Shown one piece after another: positions 6,459-60,418 of a stretch of 64,000 nt of DNA. Source of the DNA: Patescibacteria group bacterium (GTDB lineage Bacteria > Patescibacteriota > Patescibacteriia > GWA2-46-9); the NCBI GenBank assembly GCA_041660005.1, contig JBAZXG010000002.1, positions 122,037 to 186,036 of the forward strand, given 5' to 3'. Under the pieces are notes generated by a model that saw nothing but the letters and a program-made list of their open reading frames with translations, was not told the origin of the DNA and ran no database searches. The position numbers and the translations under genes are program-made. How positions within the stretch are numbered: position 1 is the first letter of the stretch; the number at the start of each line of letters is the position of its first letter.

Positions 6459-7256
6459 ATGAAAGAGTTTTTGTTGCCAATGTATCTCGTGGGTATGGGT
6501 ACAGGGAGCGGTTCGACTCTTGCGGCCATAGAATTGGCGACCAAGGAAGGCGGTCCTTTGCATGGACTCGTCAGGATGGTCCTCGCAATCGCCACCAACG
6601 CCGAGGCCGGCCTCATCAAGAGGTTGACCGATCTTGGCATGGAGGAAGGCGAGAACCTTCTGGTCATGCCGTACAAGAAGGAGAAGTCCGAACAGTGGGG
6701 TCGGGACATTCTCCGGCGGTGCCGCGCATTCGGCGCAAATCAGTTCGGACTTTTCGGCTGTGTCCCGACGGTACCAGAGTCATGCATTGAAGCACTGATT
6801 ACCGACGGCGTGCGCTGCACAAACCAACATCCTGCGTGACCGAGAGAGTTCGGTGGCGTCGGCATGATTGGGAAACGCGCAGTGGCGGCGCAGCTCCTTT
6901 TTGAGAGGATGTTGCCTCGCGGGAACGACTTCACCGCTGCTGCCGTTTGCCAAGAGTTGGATCCCGCTGTCGACGGCGGGCGCGTTCTTCACTACGAGCG
7001 CTGCCCTATCCTCGACACCGACGACGCTGAATCGCTTCAGAAGCGGCTGCTCACGATCGAGCACAAGGTGCAGATCGAAGCGCTGCGTCGAGCAGCACTC
7101 GGTGAGCTCATTCCTGTCGAGTATCCTTCGCCAGTGAAGGCGGGGGAAGAAACTCGCTGTCGCTGGGCGAAAGAGGCGGCATTTGCTTTGTACCGCGAGG
7201 GCATTCCGTACCGGAAGTCTCTTGCTCAGATCTGGGCGCAGCAAGCCGCTCTATAG
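6459..7256 (+). pseudogene. phosphoribosylglycinamide formyltransferase-like (PurN family) interrupted by an in-frame TGA at 6837-6839; GC-rich
   Basis: ORF 6459..6839 (GTGSGSTLAAIELA ... NQHPA*) and same-frame ORF 6864..7256 (LPRGNDFTAAAV...DTDDAESLQKRLLTIEHKVQIEAL) together cover the PurN/formyltransferase fold; the two halves are in the same frame, separated by one TGA. Confidence 0.6.
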
Positions 7257-7269
7257 GAGACACAAGATC

Positions 7270-8562
7270 ATGAGAATCGGAATCATTGATGGAGGTGGCC
7301 GTGGAGCCGCCATAGCGAACGCGCTTTACAACACGGGTCGCAGGACTCGTGATGTAACGCACGTTTACAACATTGGTCGCAGTGTGGTCGGCGGATACTT
7401 CGCCGGCTCGGCGCCGACGATCAACCCGAACGACGACGAGGCCATCGCGGCCTACGTCAGGAAGATGAAGATCGACATCATCATTCCGGCACGCGACGCG
7501 GAACTCTGCGCTGGTCTCGTCGATCGTCTGACGGCGCGCGGTATCACCACGGTCGGCCCAACGGCTGAGGCGGCTCAGCTTGAAGGAAGCAAGGGTTTCT
7601 TTGCCGACCTCTGTGCTACGGTCGGAATTCCTTCCCCAGCGTCGATCGTCTGTACCAGTACAGCTCGGGCATCCTCGGCTGTGCGTCTTCTACACCGTCG
7701 GTTTGGTCAACTCCCCGTTGAGAAAGCTGATGGGCTGTGGGATGGAAAGGGAGTAGTCGTTCCAGAGACCCTCGACGAGGCCGATGCAGCAATCGCGATG
7801 CTGATGGCTGGCGGCAAAGATGTCGTCATTCAAGAGCGTCTCGACGGAGTCGAGTTCTCTTTCTTTGCTCTTTCAGACGGGAAGGTTGCAGTTCCGGTCG
7901 GGTCGGCCATTGACTACAAACGCCTTCTCGACGGCAGCATTGGTCCGAATACGGGCGGCATGGGAGCGGTGTCGCCAGTTCCGTTCGTGACCAAGATTCT
8001 GGAAGATCGAGTGATGAGAGAGGTCGTGCGTCCGCTCCTGTGGGTGATGGCCCGCCGGGGTACGCCATGCCGCGGTATCATCTATTGCGGGATGATGTTG
8101 ACCAAAGAGGGGCTGAAGGTCCTCGAGGTGAACGTGCGTTTTGGTGATCCCGAGGCGCAAGGTCTCCTTCCGCGGCTCGATCAGGTAAACGGTGCGACCT
8201 TGGCTGAGCTGCTCGTCGCCACCACCAAGGATGGTGAGCTCGAAAAGCTCAGCGTCCGCCTGCGGCCGGAGGCCGCAGTCTGTGTGGTGATGGCGTCCGC
8301 GGGATACCCCGAGGCGCCGAGGGAGGGTGATCCCATCCAGGGGCTTATCACGAACGTGGAGGGCACCGAAGTCTTCCACGCCGGCACCAAGCTCGCTGAC
8401 GACAGGCGAACTTTCCTCACCGACGGTGGGCGCGTTCTCGACGTCGTCGGGTTCGCCCCGACGGTTTTCGAGGCACGTAAGCGCGCCTATGCTCGCGTCG
8501 ATACCATCAGCTGGGATGGTGAGCAGCACCGTCATGACATCGCCGAAGACATAGCCGCCTAG
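7270..8562 (+). CDS. purD: phosphoribosylamine--glycine ligase (PurD), GC-rich
   Basis: MRIGIIDGGGRG N-terminus, near-exact PurD motif AAQLEGSKGF, ATP-grasp; RBS aggaga upstream of 7270. Confidence 0.8.
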   Translation: MRIGIIDGGGRGAAIANALYNTGRRTRDVTHVYNIGRSVVGGYFAGSAPTINPNDDEAIAAYVRKMKIDIIIPARDAELCAGLVDRLTARGITTVGPTAEAAQLEGSKGFFADLCATVGIPSPASIVCTSTARASSAVRLLHRRFGQLPVEKADGLWDGKGVVVPETLDEADAAIAMLMAGGKDVVIQERLDGVEFSFFALSDGKVAVPVGSAIDYKRLLDGSIGPNTGGMGAVSPVPFVTKILEDRVMREVVRPLLWVMARRGTPCRGIIYCGMMLTKEGLKVLEVNVRFGDPEAQGLLPRLDQVNGATLAELLVATTKDGELEKLSVRLRPEAAVCVVMASAGYPEAPREGDPIQGLITNVEGTEVFHAGTKLADDRRTFLTDGGRVLDVVGFAPTVFEARKRAYARVDTISWDGEQHRHDIAEDIAA

Positions 8563-8583: not shown

Positions 8584-8665
8584 AAGGAGGGTTCAAACAG
8601 AACACAAGGAGGGAAGGCGGCGTTGTCACAGGGCAACGCCGTTTTTCCATGAGGAATATTTTGTG
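8584..8665 (+). repeat. about 80-bp unit containing an RBS-like aaggaggg and a rho-independent terminator (cggcgttg...caacgccg + TTTTT); copy 1 of 2
   Basis: Near-identical to 9209..9290; hairpin CGGCGTTG/CAACGCCG followed by gttttt. Confidence 0.75.
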
Positions 8666-8714: not shown

Positions 8715-8806
8715 ACGGGATTGGTCAACTTTAAACGGTTGACTTTTTTTGCAAAAAAGAGAAGAGTAGTTTGGTTCCACACGTTCAAGACAGGGGAGGT
8801 AAACCC

Positions 8807-9151
8807 ATGGCCGATTGCATTACGGATATGCTGAAAGGACAAGACCTCGCTGGCTGCCGAATCGAGACCTGGATCAGTCTCGAGTGGCCGACAGATGCAG
8901 GGAAGAGCGAGCACGTTGAGTACTTTTCACTGGCGGACCGCAAGGTCGTTCAAGACCTTGCTACCTCTGAAGGGATCCCTCCGCATTTCAAGGAGGTGCA
9001 AGTTCTGACGGACGGATGCGGTTCCGGTCTCATTGTTGGCAGGAGTGCTCACCTGTCAGCGGGCGAGGCCGCAAGGGCAAAGATCCAACTCAACGCCAGA
9101 GCAAGACTTCGTTCCATCGATGTAATAGCACTGGGCCTTTCGACGGAGTGA
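8807..9151 (+). CDS. hypothetical protein (about 114 aa), GC-rich cassette between two copies of the 80-bp terminator unit
   Basis: ORF with RBS ggggagg 8 nt upstream of ATG 8807; no recognisable motif. Confidence 0.4.
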   Translation: MADCITDMLKGQDLAGCRIETWISLEWPTDAGKSEHVEYFSLADRKVVQDLATSEGIPPHFKEVQVLTDGCGSGLIVGRSAHLSAGEAARAKIQLNARARLRSIDVIALGLSTE

Positions 9152-9208: not shown

Positions 9209-9290
9209 AAGGAGGGTCAAACAGAACATGAGGAGGGAAGGCGGCGTTGTCACAGGGCAACGCCGTTTTTCCATGAGAGGAATTTTGTCC
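9209..9290 (+). repeat. 80-bp terminator-containing unit, copy 2 of 2
   Basis: Matches 8584..8665. Confidence 0.75.
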
Positions 9291-9662
9291 ATTTCTTTGT
9301 GCGGGCAAAGAAATGGACGAAAGAAAGCCCGCCCCGCATCGACGCTCCAGGTCGGCAGTCATTCCGAAACAAACACGGCGGCAATGAACTCGCCTTCAGC
9401 TCAAACAGCATTGCCGCTCAGTCGTGTTCGTTTCGTCTGTCTGTTCTCCCCGGTCGATGAGGGGGTGTTGCAGAGTCCAAATCCCATAGGATCGGCGTCA
9501 GAGCTTGCGATGGAAGTGAGTGCTCTAATCTTTTAGGAGACGGTCGTGGTAATGCGAACAGGGTCTGTGGCGTTTGCTAGTTGTTGATAATTTTTGACTT
9601 GCAGTTTTGCCTTTTGATTTTTGAATTACTACTTACCTGTGCAGCCCGAGGACGTTATGTTT
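9289..9662. repeat. R1 composite structured element, copy A (begins with hairpin ccatttctttg-tgcgggca-caaagaaatgg, ends ...cagcccgaggacgttatg)
   Basis: Shares modules with 30523..31007, 48861..49290, 60020..60356: the covarying stem module (c/a)atgaactcg(y)c...caaacagcat; the piece cccataggatcggcgtcagagcttgc (inverted relative to copy D); and gttgataatttttgacttgcagttttg shared with copy B. Confidence 0.8.
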
Positions 9663-9753
9663 GAAAATTTAAAACAATGTTTTTTAAGTGAACAAAAAAT
9701 GAGCACGACGGTTATCGTGCGTAAAGCTTATAGCGTATAACGTATAGCTTATT

Positions 9754-16917: not shown

Positions 16918-17035
16918 ATTATTTATTTTTGCCAATACCTCGTCGGCTTGCCGCGAAGATGTCATATACTGAGGCAAAAATATCCCTCGTAGCCGAGTTT
17001 GACTCGGCGAAGTGGGATTACCTAGTTTTCCCGTG
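16918..17035. repeat. R2 structured element, copy 1 (atttttgcc...cctcgtcggcttgccgcgagg...ggcaaaaat...gcgaagtgggattacct)
   Basis: Same element at 30231..30390 and 47963..48054; nested inverted repeats (9-bp outer stem, inner hairpin CCTCG(T)CGG-CTTG-CCGCGAGG). Confidence 0.8.
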
Positions 17036-18611: not shown

Positions 18612-19424
18612 TTACCCGACGAAGAGCAGCCCGCCCGAATAGTCGCAGTACCCAAGCTCCAGGTACGACCTGCCGCTGACACTAATCCTGCTGTCGCGCG
18701 GGCCGAAGAACAACGACCCGCCGGACCGCCACTGGAGTGCGGCCATGTCATAGAGAAGAGTCATTCTGTCCCGCGCGAGCTCAGCCGGGTACATGACCTG
18801 GCCGATCGAGCTGTCGACACCACCAGTCAGAAGGAAACCCTCGTAAAGGTCCTCCATCTGCTCGCGCTGGGCGTTTATCGACCAGCCCTGCAAGGGATTC
18901 GGGAAGTATATCCCGACGACGGGACCTCCCCTCATGCGCTCGACGAGTCGCTCGTGACGGCTGCCCTCGACAATCGAGACCTGCTCGATGAGGTCCCCTT
19001 CGATGTTCTGACAGAACTTCCGGGCGGGGAACCGGGTCTCGTAGCTGCGGCCGACCGCAGGAAGGAAGGTCTCCTTCAATGCGCGACCGTAGTCCGACAC
19101 GTCGAACTGCGGGATCACGATCGGGAGGTGCACGGCCTTGAGGATGTTGGCAATGCTCGGCGTGCTCGCGATCTGCGCAAGCAGTGCCTCACTCTTGCAC
19201 TTGAAGCCGGCTTCGCCGAGAGCGAGCAGGCTCTCACCCTCGAAGGTGGACGACAGTCGTCCCCAGGGAGCGGTGTAGTCACACGCTGCCTGATCGGGGT
19301 TGTAGGTGAAGTCCGGTGCGCAGACAGCGGCCTTGATCCTCGTAGAAACAAGGCGTTGACCATTGTCCTCGTTGAAGAATATGGCCTCTTGCTCCCGATC
19401 TTCGTCGATCATTGATGTATTCAT
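18612..19424 (-). CDS. hypothetical protein (270 aa), GC-rich island
   Basis: Intact ORF in a region of visibly higher G+C; no recognisable motif. Downstream 18113-18611 has only fragmentary ORFs. Confidence 0.4.
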   Translation of the reverse strand: MNTSMIDEDREQEAIFFNEDNGQRLVSTRIKAAVCAPDFTYNPDQAACDYTAPWGRLSSTFEGESLLALGEAGFKCKSEALLAQIASTPSIANILKAVHLPIVIPQFDVSDYGRALKETFLPAVGRSYETRFPARKFCQNIEGDLIEQVSIVEGSRHERLVERMRGGPVVGIYFPNPLQGWSINAQREQMEDLYEGFLLTGGVDSSIGQVMYPAELARDRMTLLYDMAALQWRSGGSLFFGPRDSRISVSGRSYLELGYCDYSGGLLFVG

Positions 19425-30210: not shown

Positions 30211-30240
30211 TCTCCGGCCTCTGGCCGGAGTTTATTTTTG
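30211..30240 (+). terminator. recA terminator (ctccggcc-tc-tggccggag + TTTATTTTT) overlapping the start of R2 copy 2
   Basis: Perfect 8-bp stem followed by T-run. Confidence 0.65.
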
Positions 30241-30390
30241 CCTAACCACCTCGTCGGCTTGCCGCGAGGTTACCGTTGCAGAAGACAAAAATATCCCGCG
30301 TAGCTCCCTGACCGTCCGTAGCCTTGCTGTGTCCCGCCGTAGTTTTATACGAGCGGGAGCGAAGGAGGTTAGCGAAGTGGGATTACCTAT
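30231..30390. repeat. R2 structured element, copy 2 (expanded by an internal insertion of about 70 bp)
   Basis: tttatttttgcctaaccacctcgtcggcttgccgcgagg ... gcgaagtgggattacct. Confidence 0.8.
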
Positions 30391-30522: not shown

Positions 30523-31007
30523 AACCTCGCCCCGTCTGACGGGGCTGTGGGTTGCCTACTTTCTTACTCGCCTAAGAAAGTAGGCGGAAAGAACGGCGCC
30601 CCTGTGTCGACACTATCGTCGGCGAACGTTCCTCAGTGCGGGTGGCGACAATGAACTCGTCTTCGTCTCAAACAGCATCGTCGCTTATTCACCCGCACTT
30701 CGTCCGTTCGCTCTCCTCGGTCGGCAATGGGGTTTGGCAGAGTGAAGTGAACAATTCCTTTAGGAAACGGCCGTGGTAACGGGAGCGGCGTCTACGGTGT
30801 TTATTTGCAGTTGATAATTTTTGACTTGCAGTTTTGACTTTTGCCTTTTGATTTATAATTTCTGCTAGCCCATACAGCTCGAGGACGTTATGTTTATGTA
30901 ATGAAACTCCTACAGGATCGGCGTCGGTAATGACCGAAGAGGAACATTCAGGGCGGGATTTCTTTCACCTCTTTCCTTGTCTAAACAAAGAAAGGAGTAC
31001 GGTTTCT
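30523..31007. repeat. R1 composite structured element, copy B
   Basis: hairpin ctactttctta-ctcgcc-taagaaagtag, module gacaatgaactcgtc...caaacagcatcgtcgc, gttgataatttttgacttgcagttttg, cagctcgaggacgttatg, ctcctacaggatcggcgtc, terminal hairpin. Confidence 0.8.
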
Positions 31008-34754: not shown

Positions 34755-34900
34755 TTATTGTTGTGTGGGTATTGAACTGCCTCGACGTTATGTCGGGGCA
34801 GTTTTATTTTTGCCGAGGATAGTGAGTGGAGTACAAACAGTAATTTGTATTTCCGAACGACGCAGGCATCAAAGGGTTTAGTATCCATGTATTATGTTTT

Positions 34901-34936
34901 TTACACCATTTTGTGCGTACGCACAAAATGGTGTAA
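34901..34936. repeat. 36-bp perfect palindrome P, copy 1 (TTACACCATTTTGTGC-GTAC-GCACAAAATGGTGTAA)
   Basis: Identical sequence at 47900..47935; flanking tattatgttttt is also shared in inverted orientation. Confidence 0.9.
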
Positions 34937-35025
34937 TTTGACACTTACGTAGCTCTGCCGCGTCGCCTTTCTCAATACGCCGGTGGGCGTATTGAGGGAG
35001 CCAGGGCTTTGCCTTGAGGTAGTTG

Positions 35026-35098: not shown

Positions 35099-35975
35099 CT
35101 AATCCAGCATGCCGAGTTTTCGGAGTTCACGCCCGAGCAGTTCCATCGCCCCTGTGCTCATGGGCGTGAGTGGCAGGCGAACGTAGTCGTTGCAGAGTCC
35201 CATCATGGCGAGCGCGGCCTTGATGGGGATCGGGTTGGTTTCAAGAAAGAGGGCCCTCATCAGCGGGAGCAGATGGTAGTGAGTGGCTCTCGCTCTCGGT
35301 AAGTTCCCCCGCTGCAGGTGTTCCACCATGCCGACGAACGCCTCCGGGAGGAGATTCGAGAGAACTGAGATCACTCCATGCCCCCCGACCGACATGATGG
35401 GTAAGGTCAACCAGGAAGTCCGGGCCGCAAGCCTTGATGACATCCATGGTCTTGTTGAGAGACCCAGTGGCCTCCTTGAGTCCCACCACCTCCGGGATCC
35501 GTGTGAGTTCCACCATCGTTGCTGTTTCAATCCCGACACCAGTCCGGCCGGGAATGTCGTAGGCGATGAGTGGAAAGCCGGGTACGGCTGCGGCTATTGC
35601 GCGAAAGTGCTCGATGATGCCTTGTTGTGTGGGCTTGTTGTAATAGGGGCTGATGATCAGCGCCCCGTCAGCGCCTGCGTCCTTCGCCGCCCGAGTGAGC
35701 GCAGTCGCCTCAGCGGTCGAGTTCGACCCTGTGCCGGCGATGACTCGTGCGCGCCCATTCGCTGCCTCGACGACGATTCGAATGATGCGCTCTTGCTCTT
35801 CGCGTGTGAGCGTTGCTGCTTCACCAGTCGAGCCGCACGGCACGAGTCCTGGTACACCAGCGGCGATCTGCAGCTCCACAAGTCGTCGGAGTGCTTCCTC
35901 GTCGACTGACCCGTCTTTCTTGAATGGAGTTACGAGCGCGGTCGCAACTCTAGTGATTAGATCTGTTCTTGCCAT
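35099..35975 (-). pseudogene. dapA: 4-hydroxy-tetrahydrodipicolinate synthase (DapA) with a frameshift, GC-rich
   Basis: ORF 35241..35975 encodes the N-terminal two thirds (GSTGEAATLTREEQ...VIAGTGSNSTAEA, YYNKPTQQG). ORF 35099..35539 in another frame encodes the C-terminus (LTLPIMSVGGHGVISV...ETNPIPIKAAL). Frameshift lies near 35440-35470. Confidence 0.7.
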
Positions 35976-37946: not shown

Positions 37947-38104
37947 GATCGCCGCACTTGCGGCAGCGTCTTATTCTTAATGAGCGCTGTTGATCGCCGC
38001 ACTTACGACAGCGTTTCGTTCTCGGTAAGTGTTGTTGACCCTGCACTTGTTCGGCAGCGTCTCGTTATCAATCGGTACTATAGGATCGCTGCACTTACGG
38101 CAGT
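37947..38104. repeat. degenerate tandem repeat, about 4 units of about 45 bp (GATCGCCGCACTTRCGRCAGCGTYT...)
   Basis: Units begin at about 37947, 37992, 38037, 38084; intergenic between ychF and the exonuclease gene. Confidence 0.7.
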
Positions 38105-38748: not shown

Positions 38749-39330
38749 ATGGGTTCACTATTGTTTGAGTTTCAGTTGGAGCCCGATTTTCTGACGCCCG
38801 AGCAGTACTTCGGCAAGCTTCGGAGCAAGAGCGGTCTAGAATCAGAGCACCGCTTATATCTAGCGGTTCTACAGGATGCACTGGAGTGTTTCCAGAAATA
38901 CCTAAACGAAAGCAAGGGAAAGCATCGCCGGCTTTTCCTGGACGCCGAAGCATGGTTTGCGAGCGAGGACGCGGAGGGACTCTTCGCTTTCGAGGTCGTT
39001 TGCGAAGCCTTGCGGATCGATGCCGAGTACATTCGTCGGGGGCTCGCTGCGTGGCGGAAATCTGCGCAGCCGCGAAACGTGCCTACTCCAAAAGAGCCGC
39101 CACCGGCTCTCGGTCCCGAGATCAGGTGCCAGCGTTGCCACTGGCGCGAACGTATGAAGCAGCGTCAGAAGCACAGCCCAGGGTACGCTACGCCGCCGAT
39201 CATCTGTACGGCCTGCAATACGTACTTTGTGCAGCTGCTCGACAGGGGCAAGGTCGTGAGCGAGGAGGGGTTTGTTCAAGAGTTCCCTTACCAGGGCCAA
39301 AGGGACACGAAGCCACGCCGCGCAACATAA
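38749..39330 (+). CDS. hypothetical protein with C-terminal Cys4 zinc ribbon (CQRC...CTAC), moderately GC-rich
   Basis: Strong RBS ggaggagg; palindromic hairpin gccgcgcaac-ataaa-gttgcgcggc immediately downstream. Confidence 0.4.
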   Translation: MGSLLFEFQLEPDFLTPEQYFGKLRSKSGLESEHRLYLAVLQDALECFQKYLNESKGKHRRLFLDAEAWFASEDAEGLFAFEVVCEALRIDAEYIRRGLAAWRKSAQPRNVPTPKEPPPALGPEIRCQRCHWRERMKQRQKHSPGYATPPIICTACNTYFVQLLDRGKVVSEEGFVQEFPYQGQRDTKPRRAT

Positions 39331-47807: not shown

Positions 47808-47899
47808 ATGGTATTAACCCCATAGAAAGTCCCGGAGCATTTTATCTGCCACCGAGCGAACTGAAAAAGGGAGTGCGACAGAGCTACGTAAGTATCAAA

Positions 47900-47935
47900 T
47901 TACACCATTTTGTGCGTACGCACAAAATGGTGTAA
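47900..47935. repeat. 36-bp perfect palindrome P, copy 2
   Basis: Identical to 34901..34936. Confidence 0.9.
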
Positions 47936-47962
47936 AAAACATAATAAGTGATATTTAACCCT

Positions 47963-48054
47963 TTATTTTTGCCAATACCTCGTCGGCTTGCCGCGAGGTT
48001 ACCATATACTGAGGCAAAAATATCCCTCGTAGCTTTAGCGAAGTGGGATTACCT
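47963..48054. repeat. R2 structured element, copy 3
   Basis: ctttatttttgccaatacctcgtcggcttgccgcgaggttaccatatactgaggcaaaaatatccctcgtagctttagcgaagtgggattacct. Confidence 0.85.
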
Positions 48055-48860: not shown

Positions 48861-49290
48861 CCACTTTCTTACTTGTCTAAGAAAGTGGACGGAAAGAATG
48901 ACACCCTGAGGACTCGGCTGTGGGCTTGCTTCATACAGCAGACTGCTGACCATGAACTCGTCATCCGCCCCATAGCGGATTCCTCAAACAGCATGGTCAC
49001 TAAGTGCAGTCTGCTTCCCTCGCAAGCTTTGACGCCGATCCTAAGGGATTTTGCACTCTGCTCTGCCAAACCCCTGGTGTCCGGTCGTGGCAATGAGGAC
49101 GAAGACAGGACGAAAGAAAACAAGAGCATGTGTGAGATGAACCACAAGGTGAGGCGAGTTTGCTCTTGTTCGTCCTGCTGAGGAAGGAATGCCCGACCGG
49201 AGCACCCGGGGCGGGCTTCTTTGGGTACTTTCTTGCCCGCACAAGAAAGTACCAACTAGTCGCGAGGGCACAGCCCGAGGACGTTATGAG
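48861..49290. repeat. R1 composite structured element, copy C
   Basis: hairpin ccactttctta-cttgtc-taagaaagtgg; cctgaggactcggctgtgggcttgcttc; gaccatgaactcgtc...caaacagcatggtca; gacgccgatcctaaggg; hairpin gtactttcttg-cccgca-caagaaagtac; cagcccgaggacgttatg. Confidence 0.8.
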
Positions 49291-49341
49291 TTAAAGAAAA
49301 AGAAATGAAAAATCAAATTAAAAACAGCTGTAAATTTATAT

Positions 49342-53509: not shown

Positions 53510-55735
53510 CTAGTCTTCAGCCGCCTCTGTTTTATATGGACACTCTTTAGAGCTACAACGGACAGTACCTTTGGCACCCATAACGAGGAGCGACTTGCAG
53601 GTTGGGCAAAATTCACCTGTCGGGCGGCTCCAGAGGGCAAACGTGCAGTCCGGATAACGATTGCAAGAGTAGAATGTTTTTCCACGGCGGCTTCGCTTCT
53701 CTATTATATCCCCTTTACCGCATTCAGGGCACTTGATATTGAGCGACTTGGCAATTGACTTGATACCTTTGCATTCCGGGTAGCCGGTACAGCCCAAAAA
53801 CGGGCCAAATCGCCCGCGTTTCAGTTGCATGGGCTTTCCACACTTGTCGCATACTTCGTTGGTTGCCTCTTTCTCCGCAGCTTCTTCTGGGCTGCCTTTG
53901 ATGGGCTTGGTGTTTTTGCATTCTGGAAAACCAGTGCAGGCCAAGAATTTGCCGAACCGTCCGAGCTTGCTGATCATGGGTTTGCCGCATTTCTCGCACA
54001 CTTCATCCGTGGCTTCTTCTGAAATGTTTGACTTCAAAAGGAGCGCATCTTTTTCTTCGAGGTGCTTTTTAAACGGTACGTAAAAATCTCTAAGGATGGG
54101 AATGTACTCTTTATTACCCTCAGCAATGTCATCGAGATCTCTTTCTATGCGCGCCGTAAACTCATAGTCCACAATTTCTGGAAAATGTTCGACCAGAAGA
54201 TCATTAACAAGGTATGCAAGGTCAGTGGGGTGGAGACGTCGCTCTTGGCGTTCGACATAGCCGCGGTCGGTGATGGTAGAAATGGTCGGTGCGTAGGTGG
54301 ATGGTCGGCCAATGCCATGCTCTTCGAGCGCCTTAATGAGTGAGGCATCGGTAAAACGCGGGAGCGCTTCAGTGAAGTGCTGTTTGCCGTCAACGGCTTT
54401 TAGGGTCAGTGCGTCTCCTTTGGTAACCGAGGGTAGTTCGATGTCGCTTGTGTCCGTTGGATACACTTTCCGCCATCCATCGAAAGTAACAACAGAACCA
54501 CTGGCACGCAGTTCGTAGGGACGTTCTGTTTTTGCAGTGCTAATGTTGATGGTGGTAGTTGCAACTTCTGCCTCTGGCATTTGTGAAGCAATAGTTCGCT
54601 GCCAGATGAGTTGATAGAGCTTGCGCTGGCGTGGATCCAGGTAGGGGGCGACCACTTCCGGTGTTCGACGCGGATCGGTTGGGCGAATGGCCTCGTGCGC
54701 TTCCTGGGCATTTTTGCTTTTTGATTTGAAGCGTCGCGGCGTGGGTAGAGCGTACTGCTTACCATAGGCATCTTCTAAGAATGCGGCGGTGTCTAGTAAA
54801 AATTTTTCACCGAGGTTCATAGAGTCCGTACGCATGTAGGTGATGAGACCAACCGATCCTTCCTCGCCAATCGTGACTCCTTCGTAGAGCTGCTGGGCGA
54901 GAACCATGGTTTGTTTTGGGCTCATGCTGAGCCGTCGGCTGGCATCTTGCTGGAGAAGTGAAGTAGTGAAAGGAGTCGGTGGTTTTTTCTTGGTTTCTTT
55001 GCCAATGACGTCTGTGACCGCGTAGGTCGCCTTATTTAGTTCTGCAACGTGTTTGTCCGCGTCTTCCTTTGATTGAATGTCGAACTTCTCAAGTCGTTTG
55101 CCGTCAATGGCTGTTACGGTCGCGGTGAGTGGAGCATTATTTTTCGTGTTCAGGTCAGCTTCAATGGTCCAGTACTCCTCAGCTTTGAAAGCGTTGATTT
55201 CGCGCTCGCGTTCCACCACCATGCGCACCGCTACCGACTGCACGCGTCCGGCACTTAGTCCGCGATAAATTTTCCGCCAGAGAAACGGTGAAAGTTCGTA
55301 GCCGACCAGCCGGTCGAGCAACCGGCGTGCCTGCTGGGCGTTGACCAAGTTTTCATCGATAGCTCGCGGTTTTTTTAAGGCCTCTTCAATGGCCTCTTTG
55401 GTAATTTCATGGAAAGCGATGCGTTCAGTCGGCGTGTCTTTCAAATCCAGTGCGGCAACGAGGTGCCAGGCAATAGCTTCGCCTTCGCGATCTTCGTCGG
55501 TTGCCAGAATGACGCGTTTTGCCTTGGCTGCTTTTTTCTTTAAGGCGGTTACGTTCTTGCGCGCGCGGGTCGGGATAATGTAGTGCGCCGCAAAGTCATT
55601 TTCAGTGTCGATACCCATTTTTGATTTTGGCAGATCACGCACATGACCATAAGACGACAGCACCTCGTAGGGTTTGCCCAGAAATTTCTGAATTGTTTTG
55701 GCCTTGGTTGGCGACTCAACAATGACAAGTTCCAT
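53510..55735 (-). CDS. topA: DNA topoisomerase I with C-terminal zinc ribbons
   Basis: Toprim ELVIVESPTKAKTI, catalytic Tyr region, 4 CxxC zinc fingers; start at MELVIVESP. Confidence 0.92.
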   Translation of the reverse strand: MELVIVESPTKAKTIQKFLGKPYEVLSSYGHVRDLPKSKMGIDTENDFAAHYIIPTRARKNVTALKKKAAKAKRVILATDEDREGEAIAWHLVAALDLKDTPTERIAFHEITKEAIEEALKKPRAIDENLVNAQQARRLLDRLVGYELSPFLWRKIYRGLSAGRVQSVAVRMVVEREREINAFKAEEYWTIEADLNTKNNAPLTATVTAIDGKRLEKFDIQSKEDADKHVAELNKATYAVTDVIGKETKKKPPTPFTTSLLQQDASRRLSMSPKQTMVLAQQLYEGVTIGEEGSVGLITYMRTDSMNLGEKFLLDTAAFLEDAYGKQYALPTPRRFKSKSKNAQEAHEAIRPTDPRRTPEVVAPYLDPRQRKLYQLIWQRTIASQMPEAEVATTTINISTAKTERPYELRASGSVVTFDGWRKVYPTDTSDIELPSVTKGDALTLKAVDGKQHFTEALPRFTDASLIKALEEHGIGRPSTYAPTISTITDRGYVERQERRLHPTDLAYLVNDLLVEHFPEIVDYEFTARIERDLDDIAEGNKEYIPILRDFYVPFKKHLEEKDALLLKSNISEEATDEVCEKCGKPMISKLGRFGKFLACTGFPECKNTKPIKGSPEEAAEKEATNEVCDKCGKPMQLKRGRFGPFLGCTGYPECKGIKSIAKSLNIKCPECGKGDIIEKRSRRGKTFYSCNRYPDCTFALWSRPTGEFCPTCKSLLVMGAKGTVRCSSKECPYKTEAAED

Positions 55736-55789
55736 AGTAATATGAGAGACAATACGCGAAAGATTACCAAATGGCAAATGTGGGCACCG

Positions 55790-56887
55790 TTAGTGCGCCA
55801 GACGAATGAAATTTTTGCCGCCAATATCGCGTACAAAATCTTTCATTTCGAGCATGCTCATGGTTGAGAGAAGTTCGGTTAAAGTGAGCGCAGTGCGGTT
55901 ACAAAGTTCGTCAATATGGAGCGGCTGCTTGGTGAGCGCGGCCAGTACGGTTTGTTCTGATGTACTCAAGGTATTTATTGTCCTGGTAGGTTGTGGCTGA
56001 GTGCGTTCCAGTTGCAGCGCTTCAAGAATGTCATCAACCGAAGTAACAACGCGGGCACCAAGTTTAATGAGATCGTTGCCGCCAACACTGTTCGGTTCAA
56101 AAATGGGGCCAGGAACCGCCATCACTTCGCGGTTGTATTCAAGCGCCTGGCGAGCGGTGATGAGTGCGCCGCTTCGCTCTGGTGCTTCAATGACCAGTGT
56201 GCCCTTGGTGAGTCCGGCAATGATGCGGTTACGCGCCGGGAAGTGGTGCTTCGCCGGTCCAACGCCGGGTGGGTATTCAGAAAGAATGAGTCCGCCCGTG
56301 CGGACAATGCGACTAGCCAGGTTGCGGTGTTCGCCAGGGTAGATGTCTGCTTCGCGAATGGACGATCCAAGGACGGCAGTTGTTCGTCCGCCGACTTCGA
56401 GCGTGGCTTCGTGTACCAAGCCGTCGATGCCGCGCGCGAGTCCGCTTACAATTACGATGTTGCTCCGCGCGAGCGCCCGGGTCAGCTGCAATGTTACGGT
56501 CTTGGCGTATTGGCTGAATCGGCGAGTACCGACAATGGCGAGCGCGAGTTCGTTGGTGGTTGGCAGTGCGCCGGAGTAGAAGAGCACGACTGGCGCATCA
56601 TAAATTTCTTTGAGACGGCTTGGGTAGTTGGGGTCAGTAATAGTAATTGCTTGGATGCCAGCCGCTTCAAGTTTTGTTGCATATACTTCTGGCGGTTGCT
56701 TTTCTTGATTTATTTTGAGCTGTTCAGCTGTAACTTTGGTTAGTCCGAGCGTTTGGAGTTCGTGCGCAGGTGCTTGCCAAGCGGACGCACCGTCTGGAAA
56801 ATGATGGTAGAGTTTTCTGAGCTGTCCTGGGTCGGTTAGGTTCGCTAGGGCTATCCAATAGGTGGCGTCTTGATGCATGTTGTTCAC
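55790..56887 (-). CDS. dprA: DNA processing protein DprA (Smf)
   Basis: Rossmann-like IVSGLARGIDGLVHEA, C-terminal winged helix. Confidence 0.85.
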   Translation of the reverse strand: MNNMHQDATYWIALANLTDPGQLRKLYHHFPDGASAWQAPAHELQTLGLTKVTAEQLKINQEKQPPEVYATKLEAAGIQAITITDPNYPSRLKEIYDAPVVLFYSGALPTTNELALAIVGTRRFSQYAKTVTLQLTRALARSNIVIVSGLARGIDGLVHEATLEVGGRTTAVLGSSIREADIYPGEHRNLASRIVRTGGLILSEYPPGVGPAKHHFPARNRIIAGLTKGTLVIEAPERSGALITARQALEYNREVMAVPGPIFEPNSVGGNDLIKLGARVVTSVDDILEALQLERTQPQPTRTINTLSTSEQTVLAALTKQPLHIDELCNRTALTLTELLSTMSMLEMKDFVRDIGGKNFIRLAH

Positions 56888-56907: not shown

Positions 56908-57120
56908 ATGATGTGTTCAAATTGCAGGATATCATTGGTCAACGGCGTTTGCCCTGGTTGTGGCTATACAGAAGAACCAATTGAGATAAAGAAAGAGCTT
57001 CGTCAAACAAGCGAAAAGCCGAGTGAACCCTCGAAGCGTACTGGCGAGGGTGCGCCGTCAATTCCTCCCATTGATCCACAAGAACCTCTCCCGTTTTTTC
57101 GAGATCACCATCGGCATTAA
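56908..57120 (+). CDS. small zinc-ribbon protein (CSNC...CPGC)
   Basis: 70-aa ORF followed by hairpin terminator aaaacaacc...ggttgtttt. Confidence 0.35.
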   Translation: MMCSNCRISLVNGVCPGCGYTEEPIEIKKELRQTSEKPSEPSKRTGEGAPSIPPIDPQEPLPFFRDHHRH

Positions 57121-58314
57121 AGAAACTGTAGCACGAGTATTGTCTTGACAGGAAGCGATTCCTGTGCTAAGTTGTGCCGTTAAGTGCGGTCTTGACCGTG
57201 CTTAATAAAAACCTAGAATTTTTTGTTCGGGTGTTCCTATCTGGGAGCGACGAACGCGCCGCCACCCCTCCTAAGCGACGCAAGTAGTCACCAAGTAGTG
57301 GTGTTGAGGCTTCTGCCAAAGACACCACTCGCTCCCAGTTAAGAGCTTCGGAACGAACGCGACAAAGCCTTAAGCTATACGCAGTACGCTATACGGTGGA
57401 CGGTAGACGACCGTAAGCGCCGTACGCTATACGTTGATGAATCGTAAAGGACAAAACAACCTCGACATGACGTCGGGGTTGTTTTGAAATAACTCTAAAG
57501 TGAACGTAGGGCGTACAGCGTAACGCGTCAATCCTGTTTTTGTACCTTTACGTATAGCTTACAGCGTATAGCGTAAATCTTTCGTGTATTTATCCCAAAG
57601 TACGTCACTGCTTCCATGTATTTATCCCGAAGTAAATTGAGGGACTAGTACGTGGTTAGTAGTAAAAGTCAAGGTGGTGAGAAGTAGGGTGGAATAAAAA
57701 GGTGACTGAAAGTGGCACGCCGGGGGACAACGTTCACGATCTTGAAACCCTGCGGCTTCGCGAAAGTAATTGTTTGTCCCCCGGCGCTGTTCGGATTGGC
57801 CTCGCCCTCGGCTAGTGACGCTTGCCCTTCGTGTGCGTCTTCTTCTCGTCGCCGAGCTTCTTCTTCGGGTGCCGCGCGCCGGTGCCCGCTTGAGCTGCCG
57901 CGATTGCCGTTGCCGTTGATTGGTGATGGACCGGATGGCCCGTCGTTTGAGCGGTCATGGCTTCTTCTTCCTTGAGGGGTTTGTGGTCCCCCTCGTGCTG
58001 TTTGGGGCCCGGGCGCCCCGTTCTTGTTGTCGTCGATGCTCGGCAGAGCTTCGACATTCGTTCGCTACCAGCCGGTTGCGAAGCTCCTATTGCGGGGCCG
58101 GGCGCCCCTCGGAGCAATTAAATGGTAATCCTAGTTTAAAAGAAGCGTCAAGAGAGTTTTCAAATATTTAAGTAACGAACAACGCCACGAGATGACGACA
58201 GTTACGTGGAGCCGATGCTCTCTTCGTAATGTCGCCACTCGCGGCGCTATTGGCAGGGTTACCCCTGCCTTCGTTCATTGGTGGCACCCGCGTTGCGGGG
58301 CCACCTTCCCTTCG

Positions 58315-58773
58315 TCAGGTGCCGGCGTGGTGGTCGCCGGCCGTCGTACCCGTATCGCCGTGGTGCATGGTGCCCGTCTGGCCCGTCGTCGGCGCGGCAG
58401 CGTCGTGGTCGGTGCTCAGGTGTTCGGCAATCTTCGGCGTCGTCGCACCGTGGTGGTCCATCTGGCCCGTGGCCGCAGCGTCGTGATGGACTGCCGTTCC
58501 TTGTTCAGCAGCGCCGACTTCTTTCTCGACCTTCGCGAGCGCGGTGCCGTGTTCGGCCTTCTGCATGGTGCCGTCGGTCTTGACGGTCGGGGTTGCCGGC
58601 GTCGGCGCGGTCACGGTCTTCGAGATTGCCGTGGTTCCGTGCGTGTCGGCGTAGCTCACCTGGCTGCTGGTGACGTAGAACGCGAAGGCTCCCAGTCCCG
58701 TCAGTACACCAACAACGAGATAGGTTCCCCAGCGCGGGGTCTTGGGTGGATGTTCGGAATGAACGTTCTTCAT
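58315..58773 (-). CDS. membrane-anchored His-rich secreted protein (possible metal-binding), GC-rich island
   Basis: N-terminal TM anchor (WGTYLVVGVLTGLGAFAFYV), Thr/Ala-rich linker, repeated HH motifs (AVHHDAA, MDHHGATT, TMHHGDTG, GDHHAGT); RBS ggaggg. Confidence 0.5.
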   Translation of the reverse strand: MKNVHSEHPPKTPRWGTYLVVGVLTGLGAFAFYVTSSQVSYADTHGTTAISKTVTAPTPATPTVKTDGTMQKAEHGTALAKVEKEVGAAEQGTAVHHDAAATGQMDHHGATTPKIAEHLSTDHDAAAPTTGQTGTMHHGDTGTTAGDHHAGT

Positions 58774-58888
58774 GATGCCCTCCTATGGGCTTGTTCCGGC
58801 TTTGTTAGCCGGCGGTCGTGTCAAACCAGCGGACTTGCTGGTAGACCGGCTGACGATACAATAATACCTTTCGTTTGTCAAACAAAAT

Positions 58889-59812
58889 TCAAACAATTGT
58901 CAACCATTTTGTATATTTAGAGTCTCCCGCATGAACAATCTTTCGGTAGCTCTCCTGAAATTTTAAAGTGAGTGCGCCAGCTTTTCCGTTACCGATTTTC
59001 TGGTTATCGACTTGTGAGACAGGCGTGATCTCAACAGCCGTGCCGCAGAAGAACACCTCATCTGCTTTTTTTAATTCAGCAAGCGTAATATTTTTTTCTA
59101 TAACCTTGATGCCGCTCTTCCGCGCCAGGGAAAATATTGTGTCGCGGGTGATGCCTGGAAGCACACTGGCAGCGTGAGGTGTGTAGAGTCGTCCCTTTTT
59201 CACCATGAAAATATTTTCAACCGGCCCTTCGGTAACATATCCTTTGGCGTCAAGTAAAATCGCTTCGTCATAGCCAAATTTTTTCGCTTCTAAAGTAGCG
59301 AGAATGGAAGTTGCATAATAACCAGATACTTTGGTATTGAAAACAATAGAAGCTGGATCTCGCCAGCGAATTGATGAGCAGTGAACGCGAATCGCTTTGG
59401 TTTCAAAATGTTGCGGCCATGACCAGGTGGCAAGTGCCACATGCACCGGACAGCCGACTGGCGCCATGCCCATGCGGCTTCCGTAATAAGCGAGTGGTCG
59501 CAAATATCCTTCGCTCAGTTTATTTTTTTTGACGAGTGTTCGTGCAACGTCGGTCAATTGCGCTGTGGTGTAAGGAAGATGCATTCCCATGGCGCGCGCG
59601 GAGCGGAAGAATCGCGCCAGGTGGTCAGAGAGGCGAAAAACAGCAGTACCGTTTTTCGTTTTGTAAAAACGAATGCCCTCATACACTGCGCTGCCATAGT
59701 GGAGACTGTGCGTGAGAATGGGTACATTCGCTTTTGCCATTGGTACGTAGCGTCCATCCACCCAGACAATGCTGGCTTTTGGTGCAACGCTGCGGGAAAG
59801 TTTTTTTTGCAT
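58889..59812 (-). CDS. ilvE: branched-chain amino acid aminotransferase
   Basis: Fold-type IV PLP enzyme; EGYLRP, catalytic Lys region. Confidence 0.85.
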   Translation of the reverse strand: MQKKLSRSVAPKASIVWVDGRYVPMAKANVPILTHSLHYGSAVYEGIRFYKTKNGTAVFRLSDHLARFFRSARAMGMHLPYTTAQLTDVARTLVKKNKLSEGYLRPLAYYGSRMGMAPVGCPVHVALATWSWPQHFETKAIRVHCSSIRWRDPASIVFNTKVSGYYATSILATLEAKKFGYDEAILLDAKGYVTEGPVENIFMVKKGRLYTPHAASVLPGITRDTIFSLARKSGIKVIEKNITLAELKKADEVFFCGTAVEITPVSQVDNQKIGNGKAGALTLKFQESYRKIVHAGDSKYTKWLTIV

Positions 59813-60019
59813 GGGGAGAATAATATATTTTTCTTCTTCTATATTATAGCACCTTAAATTTGTCCTGCGATGCAGGACTGTAATTTGTTCGTTTTCGTCT
59901 TCTTAAGCTGCTAACGTCCTCGGTCCGCCGAGGTGGACCTCGCGACTGTTTGTTACTCTTTTGCGCACCCAAAATTTATTAACAAGAGCAAGTCCGCCAG
60001 AGGCGGATCCGCCTTTGGC

Positions 60020-60356
60020 GGAAAAAGGGTGCCCTGAGGACTCGGCTGTGGGCTTGCTTCGTGCAGCAGGCTGCTGACCATGAACTTGTCGCTTCGCTCC
60101 GCAAACAGCATGGTCATTAAATGCAGCCTGTTTCCCTTGCAAGCTCTGACGCCGATCCTATGGGATGAGCACTTTGCTAAACCCCATTGCCGACCGCGGA
60201 AAGCGAACGGACGAAGTGTGGGTGGTTAAGCGACGGTGTTGTTTGAAGCGGAGCAAGTTCATCGTCGCCATCCACACTGAGGAACGTTCGCCGACGAGAG
60301 TGTCGGCACAGGGCGGGCTTTCTTTCGTCTATTTCTTTGCCCGCACAAAGAAATAG
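60020..60356. repeat. R1 composite structured element, copy D (left half like copy C; right half is the reverse complement of the copy-B module)
   Basis: cctgaggactcggctgtgggcttgcttc; gaccatgaacttgtc...caaacagcatggtca; gacgccgatcctatggg; inverted B-like segment; terminal hairpin ctatttctttg-cccgca-caaagaaatag. Confidence 0.8.
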
Positions 60357-60418
60357 ACAACTTAATTTGTATTTGCGATTTCGCAAAAAATGTGCTAAAA
60401 TAAAAAAACTATCATTCT

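Follow-up and report, generated by a model that had tools for sequence, protein, structure and literature searches.

Small RNAs that act in trans are known from the Firmicutes, where RsaE/RoxS occlude ribosome-binding sites by means of C-rich or CU-rich loops. Intergenic palindromic repeats at the 3′ ends of genes are represented by repetitive extragenic palindromic (REP) elements, bacterial interspersed mosaic elements (BIMEs) and miniature inverted-repeat transposable elements (MITEs), and His-rich metal-binding or metal-storage proteins by Hpn of Helicobacter and by SilE/PcoE with their His/Met motifs. Here we describe a locus at which a conserved small-RNA gene, a repeat built of 7-nucleotide (nt) units (heptads) and a GC-rich islet with two His-rich open reading frames (ORFs) adjoin one another. 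It lies at positions 57,121 to 58,888 of a 64,000-nt stretch of DNA from a Patescibacteria group bacterium (GenBank assembly GCA_041660005.1, contig JBAZXG010000002.1, positions 122,037 to 186,036 of the forward strand), and this whole stretch is referred to as the window. On balance we favour reading the interval as a composite of three unrelated features in an Uhrbacteria-like Patescibacteria chromosome. The small-RNA family is the chief new result; the palindrome of heptads and the His-rich orphan genes are lineage-specific additions, to which functions are assigned provisionally.

Three further systems invite comparison. The parS site of pSM19035 consists of 7-10 consecutive non-palindromic 7-bp repeats, at least four of which must be contiguous for function, and the ribbon-helix-helix (RHH) protein Omega binds runs of these repeats in direct and in inverted orientation (PMC9499535). 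Arrays of tandem interspaced guide RNA (TIGR) occur in phages and in Candidate Phyla Radiation (CPR) bacteria; they comprise 5-15 units of 36 nt, each with two alternating repeats of 8-12 nt and 9-nt spacers, beside a Tas gene with a Nop domain (PMC12045711). Genomic islands and horizontal transfer have been documented in Patescibacteria (PMC12455944).

Among species representatives, a Candidatus Uhrbacteria genome (L001) is the nearest; its DprA is 63% and its IlvE 72% identical to the proteins of the window. A gap-free metagenomic copy of the L001 locus (L082) was available as well, and a second relative, L002, was re-found among metagenomes as L081.

The small-RNA gene and its family

Next to nothing is known of regulation by RNA in the CPR, whose members have tiny genomes and few recognisable regulators, and the literature searched yielded no paper that deals with small RNAs in either Patescibacteria or Saccharibacteria. 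The left part of the interval (57145-57490) is filled by a small-RNA gene that had been overlooked in the first-pass annotation of the window. Its parts, all on the + strand, are the following.

57145-57173, +: sigma-70-type promoter read from the sequence, with TTGACA (57145-57150), a 17-nt spacer and TAAGTT (57168-57173)
57180-57490, +: predicted small-RNA transcript of ~310 nt (5′ hairpin, structured core, strain-specific 3′ extension, terminator), placed from the promoter-to-terminator anatomy
57226-57358, +: conserved structured core, a long closing stem with two internal hairpins, from covariance-model matches
57263-57274, +: apical loop CACCCCUCCUAA, of which the CCCUCCUAA part is invariant across the family in the five-sequence alignment
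57356-57451, +: strain-specific insertion of ~96 nt between RNA core and terminator, absent from L001 and L002 in the alignment; it holds the left-arm heptad units
57452-57490, +: intrinsic terminator, an inverted repeat with a 15-bp stem and a 5-nt loop, followed by UUGUUUUG

The RNA possesses a conserved, strand-specific and covarying structure, as judged on a small sample and a model-fitted alignment. A segment of ~232 nt (57123-57353) is 83% identical to L001 and its central part is also present in L002; all three sequences adopt one common fold, in which a long stem (CUGGGAGCG / CGCUCCCAG) closes upon two hairpins. The stem of the first hairpin is wholly different between genomes yet its loop (G/C)ACCCCUCCUAA is constant, and the second hairpin contains three compensatory pair changes. 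A covariance model of these three sequences led to two further copies, in L005 (Parcubacteria group, 59.7 bits) and L010 (57.6 bits), with E of ~1e-13. Each of them has a TTGACA promoter and lies upstream of dprA in divergent orientation. This placement of the RNA is now seen in at least five Patescibacteria lineages, and it extends to lineages in which DprA identity is down to ~41%.

The covariance-model scores of the five copies (window, L001, L002, L005 and L010) are 113-152 bits on the forward strand versus 18-35 bits on the reverse strand; a dedicated comparison of strands gave 113-138 versus 18-33 bits. Across the 43 pairs of the five-sequence alignment, 93.5% of the cells are paired and 30 pairs are changed on both sides, a level reached by none of 500 shuffles; controls with slid partners pair 34-44% of the cells. 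Double changes are found in all seven pairs of the stem under the apical loop. The invariant residues comprise the loop A-CCCUCCUAA, an AGUA that faces a GAA-type internal loop, and CUG/CAG closing pairs. Two considerations weaken this case: the pair counts, taken from a model-fitted alignment of only five sequences, lean toward the model, and the family consists of five firm members and one weak one (L060, 26 bits, with the loop kept).

The small RNA is a previously uncatalogued conserved gene. At gathering thresholds, Rfam 15 recognizes two tRNAs only in the whole window, and in 57000-58900 no match with an E below ~4 overlaps the RNA; over the L005 and L010 copies it yields nothing but a 23.6-bit ARRPOF fragment (gathering score 127). 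A loop-based pattern scan of metagenomes returned only the L001 and L002 genomes again (as L082 and L081), and a scan of viral contigs gave zero matches. The RNA is a concrete, testable candidate regulator that could enter the RNA family databases.

Its layout from promoter to terminator suggests that the RNA is independently transcribed. The 44 nt spanning the promoter are identical in L001, and a perfect TTGACA is present at a comparable distance in all five family members. The predicted transcript folds with an energy of -118 kcal/mol (z = -6.0), and its counterparts would be ~205 nt long in L001 and ~185-205 nt in L002. The terminator stem sequence is common to the window and the L001 terminator, GTCGGGGTT. 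In four of the five copies an intrinsic terminator ends the element and no close same-strand gene lies downstream, and for this reason the RNA is taken to be, in all likelihood, a stand-alone small RNA, with a cis-acting leader as a live rival.

The RNA presents the invariant CCCUCCUAA in a hairpin loop, where it is complementary to the Shine-Dalgarno-type UUAGGAGGG, and would act in trans by pairing with Shine-Dalgarno regions; alternatively, a protein might bind through the CCCUCCUAA loop. Occlusion of Shine-Dalgarno sequences in trans is suggested by the complementarity itself, and one putative target is near at hand, upstream of a 152-aa gene in the adjoining islet.

58778-58785, -: Shine-Dalgarno sequence UAGGAGGG of the 152-aa gene, complementary without mismatch over 8 nt to the loop CCCUCCUA of the small RNA, from an 8-mer count

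The UAGGAGGG 8-mer occurs twice in the window, once as this Shine-Dalgarno sequence and once as the antisense of the RNA loop. Two points count against a specific pairing. The match is within chance, an 8-mer being expected ~2 times per 128 kb, and the complementarity is non-specific, as any CCUCC loop fits most ribosome-binding sites.

A bolder version, which we put forward as possible though doubtful, would make the RNA the founding member of a Patescibacteria-wide class whose CCCUCCUAA loop mimics the 3′ end of 16S rRNA, and which either acts on Shine-Dalgarno-dependent translation initiation in general, as decoy or regulator, or offers a conserved protein a docking site. In the window organism the heptads would then form a platform that recruits a further factor, and the imported His-rich gene would be a direct target.

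Somewhat less probable, and in our view unlikely, is that the conserved RNA is a cis-acting, riboswitch-like leader and the hairpin after it an expression platform. Such a leader would suit the L005 copy, where a ribosome-binding site and a small membrane-protein ORF follow directly on the same strand within ~35 nt of the element, as well as L002, in which a 237-aa membrane protein is encoded downstream on the same strand; a complex, well-conserved fold with a GAA/AGUA internal loop would not be out of place in it either. However, no same-strand gene follows the RNA in the window, L001 or L010, where the next genes are convergent, the terminator is clear of the closing stem of the core and thus leaves no obvious alternative pairing, and no riboswitch family of Rfam is matched. 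The stand-alone small RNA is therefore preferred, with two reservations: the arrangement in L005, and transcript ends that were set from consensus motifs only.

The GC-rich islet and its His-rich ORFs

The right part of the interval is an islet of 57.7-58.85 kb that comprises two compact - strand transcription units with an AT-rich promoter region between them. The first-pass annotation had described 57.7-58.8 kb as GC-rich, and this is borne out: the GC content is 0.57-0.68 over 57700-58100 and 0.61-0.73 over 58200-58750, versus ~0.48 window-wide, with a dip to 0.43-0.48 at 58100-58250. The two His-rich ORFs that it reported on the - strand are likewise both present.

58853-58881, -: promoter-like TTGACA, 17 nt, TATCGT (10/12 matches) of unit A, directly after the ilvE stop codon, from a promoter scan
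58315-58773, -: 152-aa gene encoding a short basic N-terminus, one membrane helix and a disordered Thr/Ala/Gly/His-rich tail, from composition and AlphaFold2 (AF2)
58183-58197, -: terminator-like hairpin downstream of the 152-aa gene, from a terminator scan
58122-58151, -: promoter-like TTGACG, 18 nt, TACCAT of unit B, in the AT-rich dip, from a promoter scan and composition
57812-57958, -: 48-aa His/Lys-rich ORF with no membrane anchor, inside a 101-aa ORF (57812-58117), from third-position GC content and DNA similarities
57718-57786, no strand assigned: GC-rich hairpin, an inverted repeat with 13-bp perfect arms (GCCGGGGGACAA / TTGTCCCCCGGC); likely a - strand terminator and the conserved left edge of the block

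In unit A a leader of ~80 nt is followed by UAGGAGGG and an ATG at 58773, and the leader of unit B is GC-rich with two GGGGC(G)CCCGG(G)CCCC hairpins. The ACGCCGGGGG...CCCCGGCG hairpin also occurs in L001/L082, there with a T run after it. GC content at the first, second and third codon positions (GC1, GC2 and GC3) is 0.63/0.55/0.78 in the 152-aa ORF, and GC3 is 0.76 in the 48-aa ORF, as opposed to 0.43-0.54 in backbone genes including the ribosomal-protein genes S15 (0.54) and S18 (0.52), and so the block is compositionally foreign, as had been supposed. Expression-driven codon bias was rejected as the source of the high GC3, given the values of ~0.5 in S15 and S18. The + strand ORFs across the block (87, 83 and 242 aa) were rejected as coding, their GC3 not being above GC1/GC2.

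Thr (28), Ala (22), Gly (17) and His (14) make up much of the 152 residues of the larger protein, which contains five HH/HD motifs: VHHD, (M)DHHG, DHD, (T)MHHG(D) and (G)DHHA. AF2 places a confident helix at residues 15-45 and assigns the remainder a predicted local distance difference test (pLDDT) score below 50, in keeping with the N-terminally anchored His-rich protein of the first-pass annotation; by the positive-inside rule, the tail would be extracytoplasmic. Four DNA similarities connect the two ORFs, one of them between VHHQSTAT of the shorter product and VHHDAAAT of the longer, and because all four keep the reading frame, the 48-aa ORF is viewed as an anchorless fragment, paralogous to the His-rich repeat unit of the longer protein.

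Both products are orphans. The 152-aa protein, recorded at NCBI only as a hypothetical protein of a Patescibacteria metagenome-assembled genome, recovered only itself in a search of 5.8e9 clusters and in a full phmmer search of 1.84e9 representatives, and no significant match was found in Pfam, NCBIfam, PHROGs or PDB. The 101-aa/48-aa ORF likewise matched only itself among the 5.8e9 clusters and had no match in the profile libraries; a second contig with the 101-aa ORF (L181) is 100% identical and hence offers no population variation. Most plausibly, the His/Asp/Met-rich tail binds a divalent metal at the cell surface. Here the metal-motif check envisaged in the first-pass annotation came out divided: HH/DHH/MHH motifs are present and suggestive only, and neither a homolog nor a match to known metal-binding families in Pfam, NCBIfam or PDB was found. 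If the anchored protein does bind metal, this would bear on ion scavenging at the surface of an episymbiotic cell.

A GC-rich segment also separates the conserved hairpin from ilvE in L082, with different content. Here a 110-aa Thr/Ala/His-rich ORF (GC3 0.89) adjoins ilvE in the same orientation, with a TTGACAAA box in the equivalent position, and beyond it is a gene for a secreted, Cys-containing 168-aa protein (GC3 0.72). The only homolog of the latter outside its own cluster, P0004 (49% identity), is encoded on a contig of 63.6% GC, and its neighbours there, genes for a PAS sensor kinase, PhoD and DUF1329, form a non-CPR context. When the 48-aa unit was aligned with the corresponding part of L082, only the terminator hairpin gave any information. 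Taken together, the site between the small RNA and ilvE suggests a gene-acquisition hotspot for high-GC DNA, and the window's own two ORFs were probably imported, to judge by composition. In the sister locus, the gene that takes the position of the 152-aa gene, L082 3795-4200 (-), shows a good ribosome-binding site, after which no ATG/GTG/TTG is evident. It also contains a TGA in frame, just ahead of the hydrophobic stretch (…HRKKKGR*TLRIVDALAVVMFVGF…), which could reflect a pseudogene, an assembly error or recoding.

Several facts sit uneasily with import into a shared site. Searches found no homolog that could point to a donor of the two His-rich ORFs, the islet borders contain no integrase or tRNA, the similarity between the L082 110-aa ORF and the 152-aa protein is marginal (14/25 residues, E = 0.015), and the L082 counterpart is interrupted by the TGA just mentioned. 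Moreover, the ilvE-adjacent gene is GC-rich in both of these deeply diverged genomes (GC3 0.78 in the window, 0.89 in L082). This makes an old shared transfer awkward, because a shared import should have drifted toward host composition. Independent acquisitions, ongoing exchange or selection are possible reasons for the persistent high GC3 beside ilvE.

The His-rich GC-rich genes could instead be native, fast-evolving and lineage-specific, perhaps even of de novo origin, with their GC content kept by selection or a local mutational bias. A low-complexity, disordered product for which no homolog turned up anywhere searched would fit this, as would the L082 counterpart, which agrees in architecture, orientation, promoter position and composition and shows the weak similarity already noted. 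Nevertheless, GC3 of 0.78-0.89 has no known native cause where ribosomal-protein genes stay at ~0.5, the neighbouring gene in the sister islet has its homolog in a high-GC foreign genome, and further GC3-rich genes of the window (the purD-like and 270-aa ORFs) point to repeated import. A native origin is thus entertained with some scepticism, and import remains the preferred explanation.

The other GC3-rich genes of the window are a Formyl_trans_N fragment and a purD-like 459-aa ORF at 6459-8562 (GC3 0.66-0.67), a 270-aa ORF with no Pfam match at 18612-19424 (0.78), a 193-aa ORF at 38749-39330 (0.66) and a dihydrodipicolinate synthase (DHDPS, dapA-like) gene at 35099-35975. Their spread across the window suggests repeated import of high-GC DNA.

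The heptad repeat and the long palindrome

The motif CGTATAGC is enriched in the window, as the first-pass annotation had it, with 8 matches on either strand versus 0.96 expected and with none of 100 shuffles reaching 8. The three direct and two inverted copies reported by it are confirmed at their places (all five within 57374-57572), and so is the recurrence of the motif at 961(-) and 9741(+); the copy at 34149(+) had been overlooked. Because the motifs read as degenerate CGTATAG heptads, they amount to ~5 copies of a ~28-nt unit (CGTATAGCNTACNGCGTATAGCNTAA) rather than eight independent sites. Tandem Repeats Finder reports period-7 arrays at 57374-57395 and 57551-57575, and the in-register reading is as follows.

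961(-), 9741(+), 34149(+), 57374(-), 57388(-), 57426(-), 57551(+), 57565(+): matches of CGTATAGC on either strand, from the window count
57395-57368, -: heptads CGTATAG CGTACTG CGTATAG CTTAAGG
57413-57433, -: heptads CGTATAG CGTACGG ..., read from 57433
57505-57532, +: heptads CGTAGGG CGTACAG CGTAACG CGTCAAT
57551-57578, +: heptads CGTATAG CTTACAG CGTATAG CGTAAAT
9720-9752, +: heptads CGTAAAG CTTATAG CGTATAA CGTATAG, the fifth unit, between the 3′ end of copy A of a repeat family designated R1 (see below) and the guaA stop codon
57497-57580, +: right-arm module, AAAGTGAAC followed by the heptad units 57505-57532 and 57551-57578, a direct repeat paralogous to 9685-9752
57579-57634, +: two 24-nt direct repeats CTTYCRTGTATTTATCCCRAAGTA, 32 nt apart, 88% identity

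The two right units lie just past the terminator, where the window is ~95 nt longer than L001, and the paralogy of the right-arm module to 9685-9752 includes the AAGTGAAC that precedes it. Arms and terminator together fold into a single hairpin of ~250 nt (~57350-57600; -106 kcal/mol, z = -6.2). CGTATAGC is absent from L001 and L002, and BLAST of both arms against all fetched loci gave no homolog outside the window organism. The heptads are a lineage-specific repeat that remodelled the terminator between convergent units. In this lineage only, two inverted units would have been added on each side of the terminator, which would thereby have become the tip of the long hairpin, and the units may be regarded as a small intergenic palindromic repeat that is REP/MITE-like in behaviour. 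Their likeliest effect would be structural, in that they would reinforce a terminator active in both directions, or form an insulator, where the small-RNA and His-rich units converge.

Several observations attach to this region. The 8-mer AAGTGAAC, which stands before two heptad modules, has 10 occurrences on both strands versus ~2 expected for a random 8-mer. The contig L181, an independent metagenome contig of 1,061 bp, is 100% identical to window 57492-58552 and breaks at 57492, near the centre of the palindrome, as would fit an inverted repeat that disrupts assembly. The window (57646-57657) and L001/L082 (L082 ~2682-2693) share a 12-nt block, ACTAGTACGTGG, amid purine-rich intergenic sequence that cannot otherwise be aligned; in L001 the block is part of the near-palindrome ATGTACTAGTACGT and may be a protein-binding site.

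The first-pass annotation had further suggested that the motif clusters may be the ends of an element. They are not the ends of the GC-rich block, because both clusters are situated on one side of it, where they form the arms of the long palindrome centred on the small-RNA terminator. In L001/L082 a GC-rich block occupies this place as well, yet CGTATAGC is wholly absent, and motifs and block are for that reason independent. What had been flagged is real, and the link that was drawn between motifs and block is not.

Operator-like or centromere-like sites bound cooperatively by a small dimeric protein, in the manner of Omega/ParB of pSM19035, would be another way to account for the arrays, and one that the first-pass annotation had considered. 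In part it stands up, with ~4 contiguous 7-bp units per block in both orientations, a motif enriched ~8-fold in the window, and runs of the length that parS function requires (PMC9499535) at 57368-57395, 57505-57532, 57551-57578 and 9720-9752, albeit of degenerate heptads. The binding protein is the part that fails. None of the 130 small ORFs of the 64-kb window matches an RHH, Omega or ParB family (nine unrelated Pfam families only were hit), the arrays are at 3′ ends and terminators rather than over promoters, and the heptads have 0-4 mismatches each. Furthermore, heptamer arrays of arbitrary sequence are common: in viral contigs, where CGTATAG gave 11 arrays, the counts for two control heptamers matched in composition were 4 and at least 80, so the viral matches carry no information and were dropped as base rate. 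Operator sites are accordingly considered improbable. As an aside, perfect-heptamer tandem arrays are common in phage contigs (L083-L093, L098-L177), in several sequences and often in the intergenic space from a stop codon to the next start.

Equally hard to sustain is that the clusters are terminal inverted repeats of a ~250-bp non-autonomous, MITE-like element at the 3′ end of the small RNA, with 9720-9752 as a solo end. The arms are inverted over 25-60 nt with 70-80% complementarity and absent from syntenic relatives, a second right-arm module occurs elsewhere in the window, and other lineage-specific repeats, such as R1 copy D, have inserted in the genome. The central terminator stem, however, is shared with L001, from which it follows that the arms were added around a pre-existing hairpin and did not arrive as one element. 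There is neither an evident target-site duplication nor a transposase nearby, the window has a single full two-armed copy, and the arms do not flank the GC-rich block. Remodelling of the terminator by short repeat units is therefore retained over a MITE-like insertion.

An origin or iteron role, another suggestion of the first-pass annotation, was rejected, as the cumulative GC skew rises with no sustained inflection, the neighbours (topA, dprA, the Zn-ribbon ORF and ilvE) include no replication gene, and the repeats are absent in the syntenic relative. A TIGR array was rejected for its lack of spacers, the period being 7 nt, and of a Nop domain in the flanking genes.

Surroundings and comparison with known systems

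The locus is flanked by the following genes.

53510-55777, -: topA
55790-56887, -: dprA
56908-57120, +: Zn-ribbon ORF of 70 aa, between dprA and the small RNA
58889-59812, -: ilvE-like class IV aminotransferase gene

Beyond the ilvE-like gene are a 500-aa ORF and a ThiF-family gene, and the order topA, dprA, Zn-ribbon ORF, RNA, GC-rich block, ilvE, 500-aa gene and ThiF gene is common to the window and L001. The Zn-ribbon ORF (CxxC...CPGC, with a disordered tail) is conserved in three genomes (window 56908-57120 (+), L001 9719-10063 (-) and L002 1769-2155 (-)), each time with dprA on one side and the small RNA on the other, and has no family match in Pfam or PHROG.

Other repeats are encountered throughout the window. 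The R1 family consists of four copies (9285-9665, 30557-30895, 48904-49295 and 59893-60360) of ~340-470 nt and 72-93% identity, in both orientations and with a common 3′ end motif, CCGAGGACGTTA; it has no match by BLAST in the fetched relatives and none in Rfam. Copy D, which the first-pass annotation had correctly placed past ilvE (~59893-60360), fills the spacer between ilvE and the 500-aa ORF, and it is considered an insertion because this spacer is 607 bp in the window versus 123 bp in syntenic L001. A perfect 36-nt palindrome, TTACACCATTTTGTGCGTACGCACAAAATGGTGTAA, occurs twice, 13 kb apart and with 100% identity (34901-34936 and 47900-47935), within 121-nt inverted repeats (34890-35010 / 47826-47946). 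Two 75-nt direct repeats of 91% identity (8590-8664 / 9214-9288), each with AGGAGGG, a GC hairpin and a T run (GGCGGCGTTGTCACAGGGCAACGCCGTTTTT), look like small terminator-bearing modules on either side of an ORF at 8771-9151. A 72-nt family (16922-16993, 30233-30304 and 47962-48033; 69-94% identity) contains CCTCGTCGGCTTGCCGCGAGG and has one copy just upstream of tRNA-Arg, and at 37947-38072 a 45-nt unit is repeated in tandem (2.8 copies, 73% matches). The dapA-like gene (35099-35975, -) appears to be split: the ORF 35241-35975 covers positions 3-183 of 289 of the DHDPS profile, and an overlapping ORF in another frame (35099-35539) resembles the C-terminal part (GVISV...NPIPIK). Either a frameshift has made it a pseudogene or the sequence contains an error.

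The locus introduces no new principle and is a well-delimited new instance. It shows in miniature how such streamlined genomes change, with GC-rich genes for surface proteins, foreign or orphan, being taken up at one fixed site and a terminator being reshaped by lineage-specific repeats.

Among the known systems, TIGR arrays share with the locus a CPR genome and short repeats that run up to a terminator (PMC12045711), yet the 36-nt unit, the dual repeats, the spacers and the Tas gene are all missing here. The Omega sites of pSM19035 share with the heptads 7-bp non-palindromic units in runs of ~4 and in both orientations (PMC9499535); they differ in sequence (WATCACW rather than CGTATAG), and the arrays of the window are chromosomal, are not located over promoters and have no RHH/ParA gene in the window. 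Closer in kind are the REP, BIME and MITE elements, which the heptad units resemble as a short lineage-specific family that forms imperfect hairpins and is inserted between convergent units or after stop codons. They are set apart by degenerate 7-nt sub-repeats, by their number (five units in 64 kb) and by their symmetry around an existing terminator.

The islet is similar to the genomic islands of Patescibacteria in its deviant composition, in cargo that varies between relatives and in at least one sister cargo gene with a non-CPR relative (PMC12455944). At ~1.1 kb it is small, its two ORFs are accompanied by no integrase, tRNA or flanking repeats, and all of the window's cargo is orphan. The 152-aa protein shares with Hpn and SilE/PcoE a high His content (14/152), clustered HH/DHH/MHH motifs and a disordered chain; in contrast to these, it has no detectable homology to them, is membrane-anchored and has a Thr/Ala/Pro-rich linker.

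The small RNA is unrelated in sequence and in Rfam family to RsaE/RoxS, from which it also differs by its single CCCUCCUAA loop in a three-helix fold with a long closing stem and by its occurrence in Patescibacteria, beside dprA. Like RsaE/RoxS, it would be a promoter-to-terminator unit of ~200-300 nt in which a loop exposes a conserved, pyrimidine-rich complement of the Shine-Dalgarno sequence.

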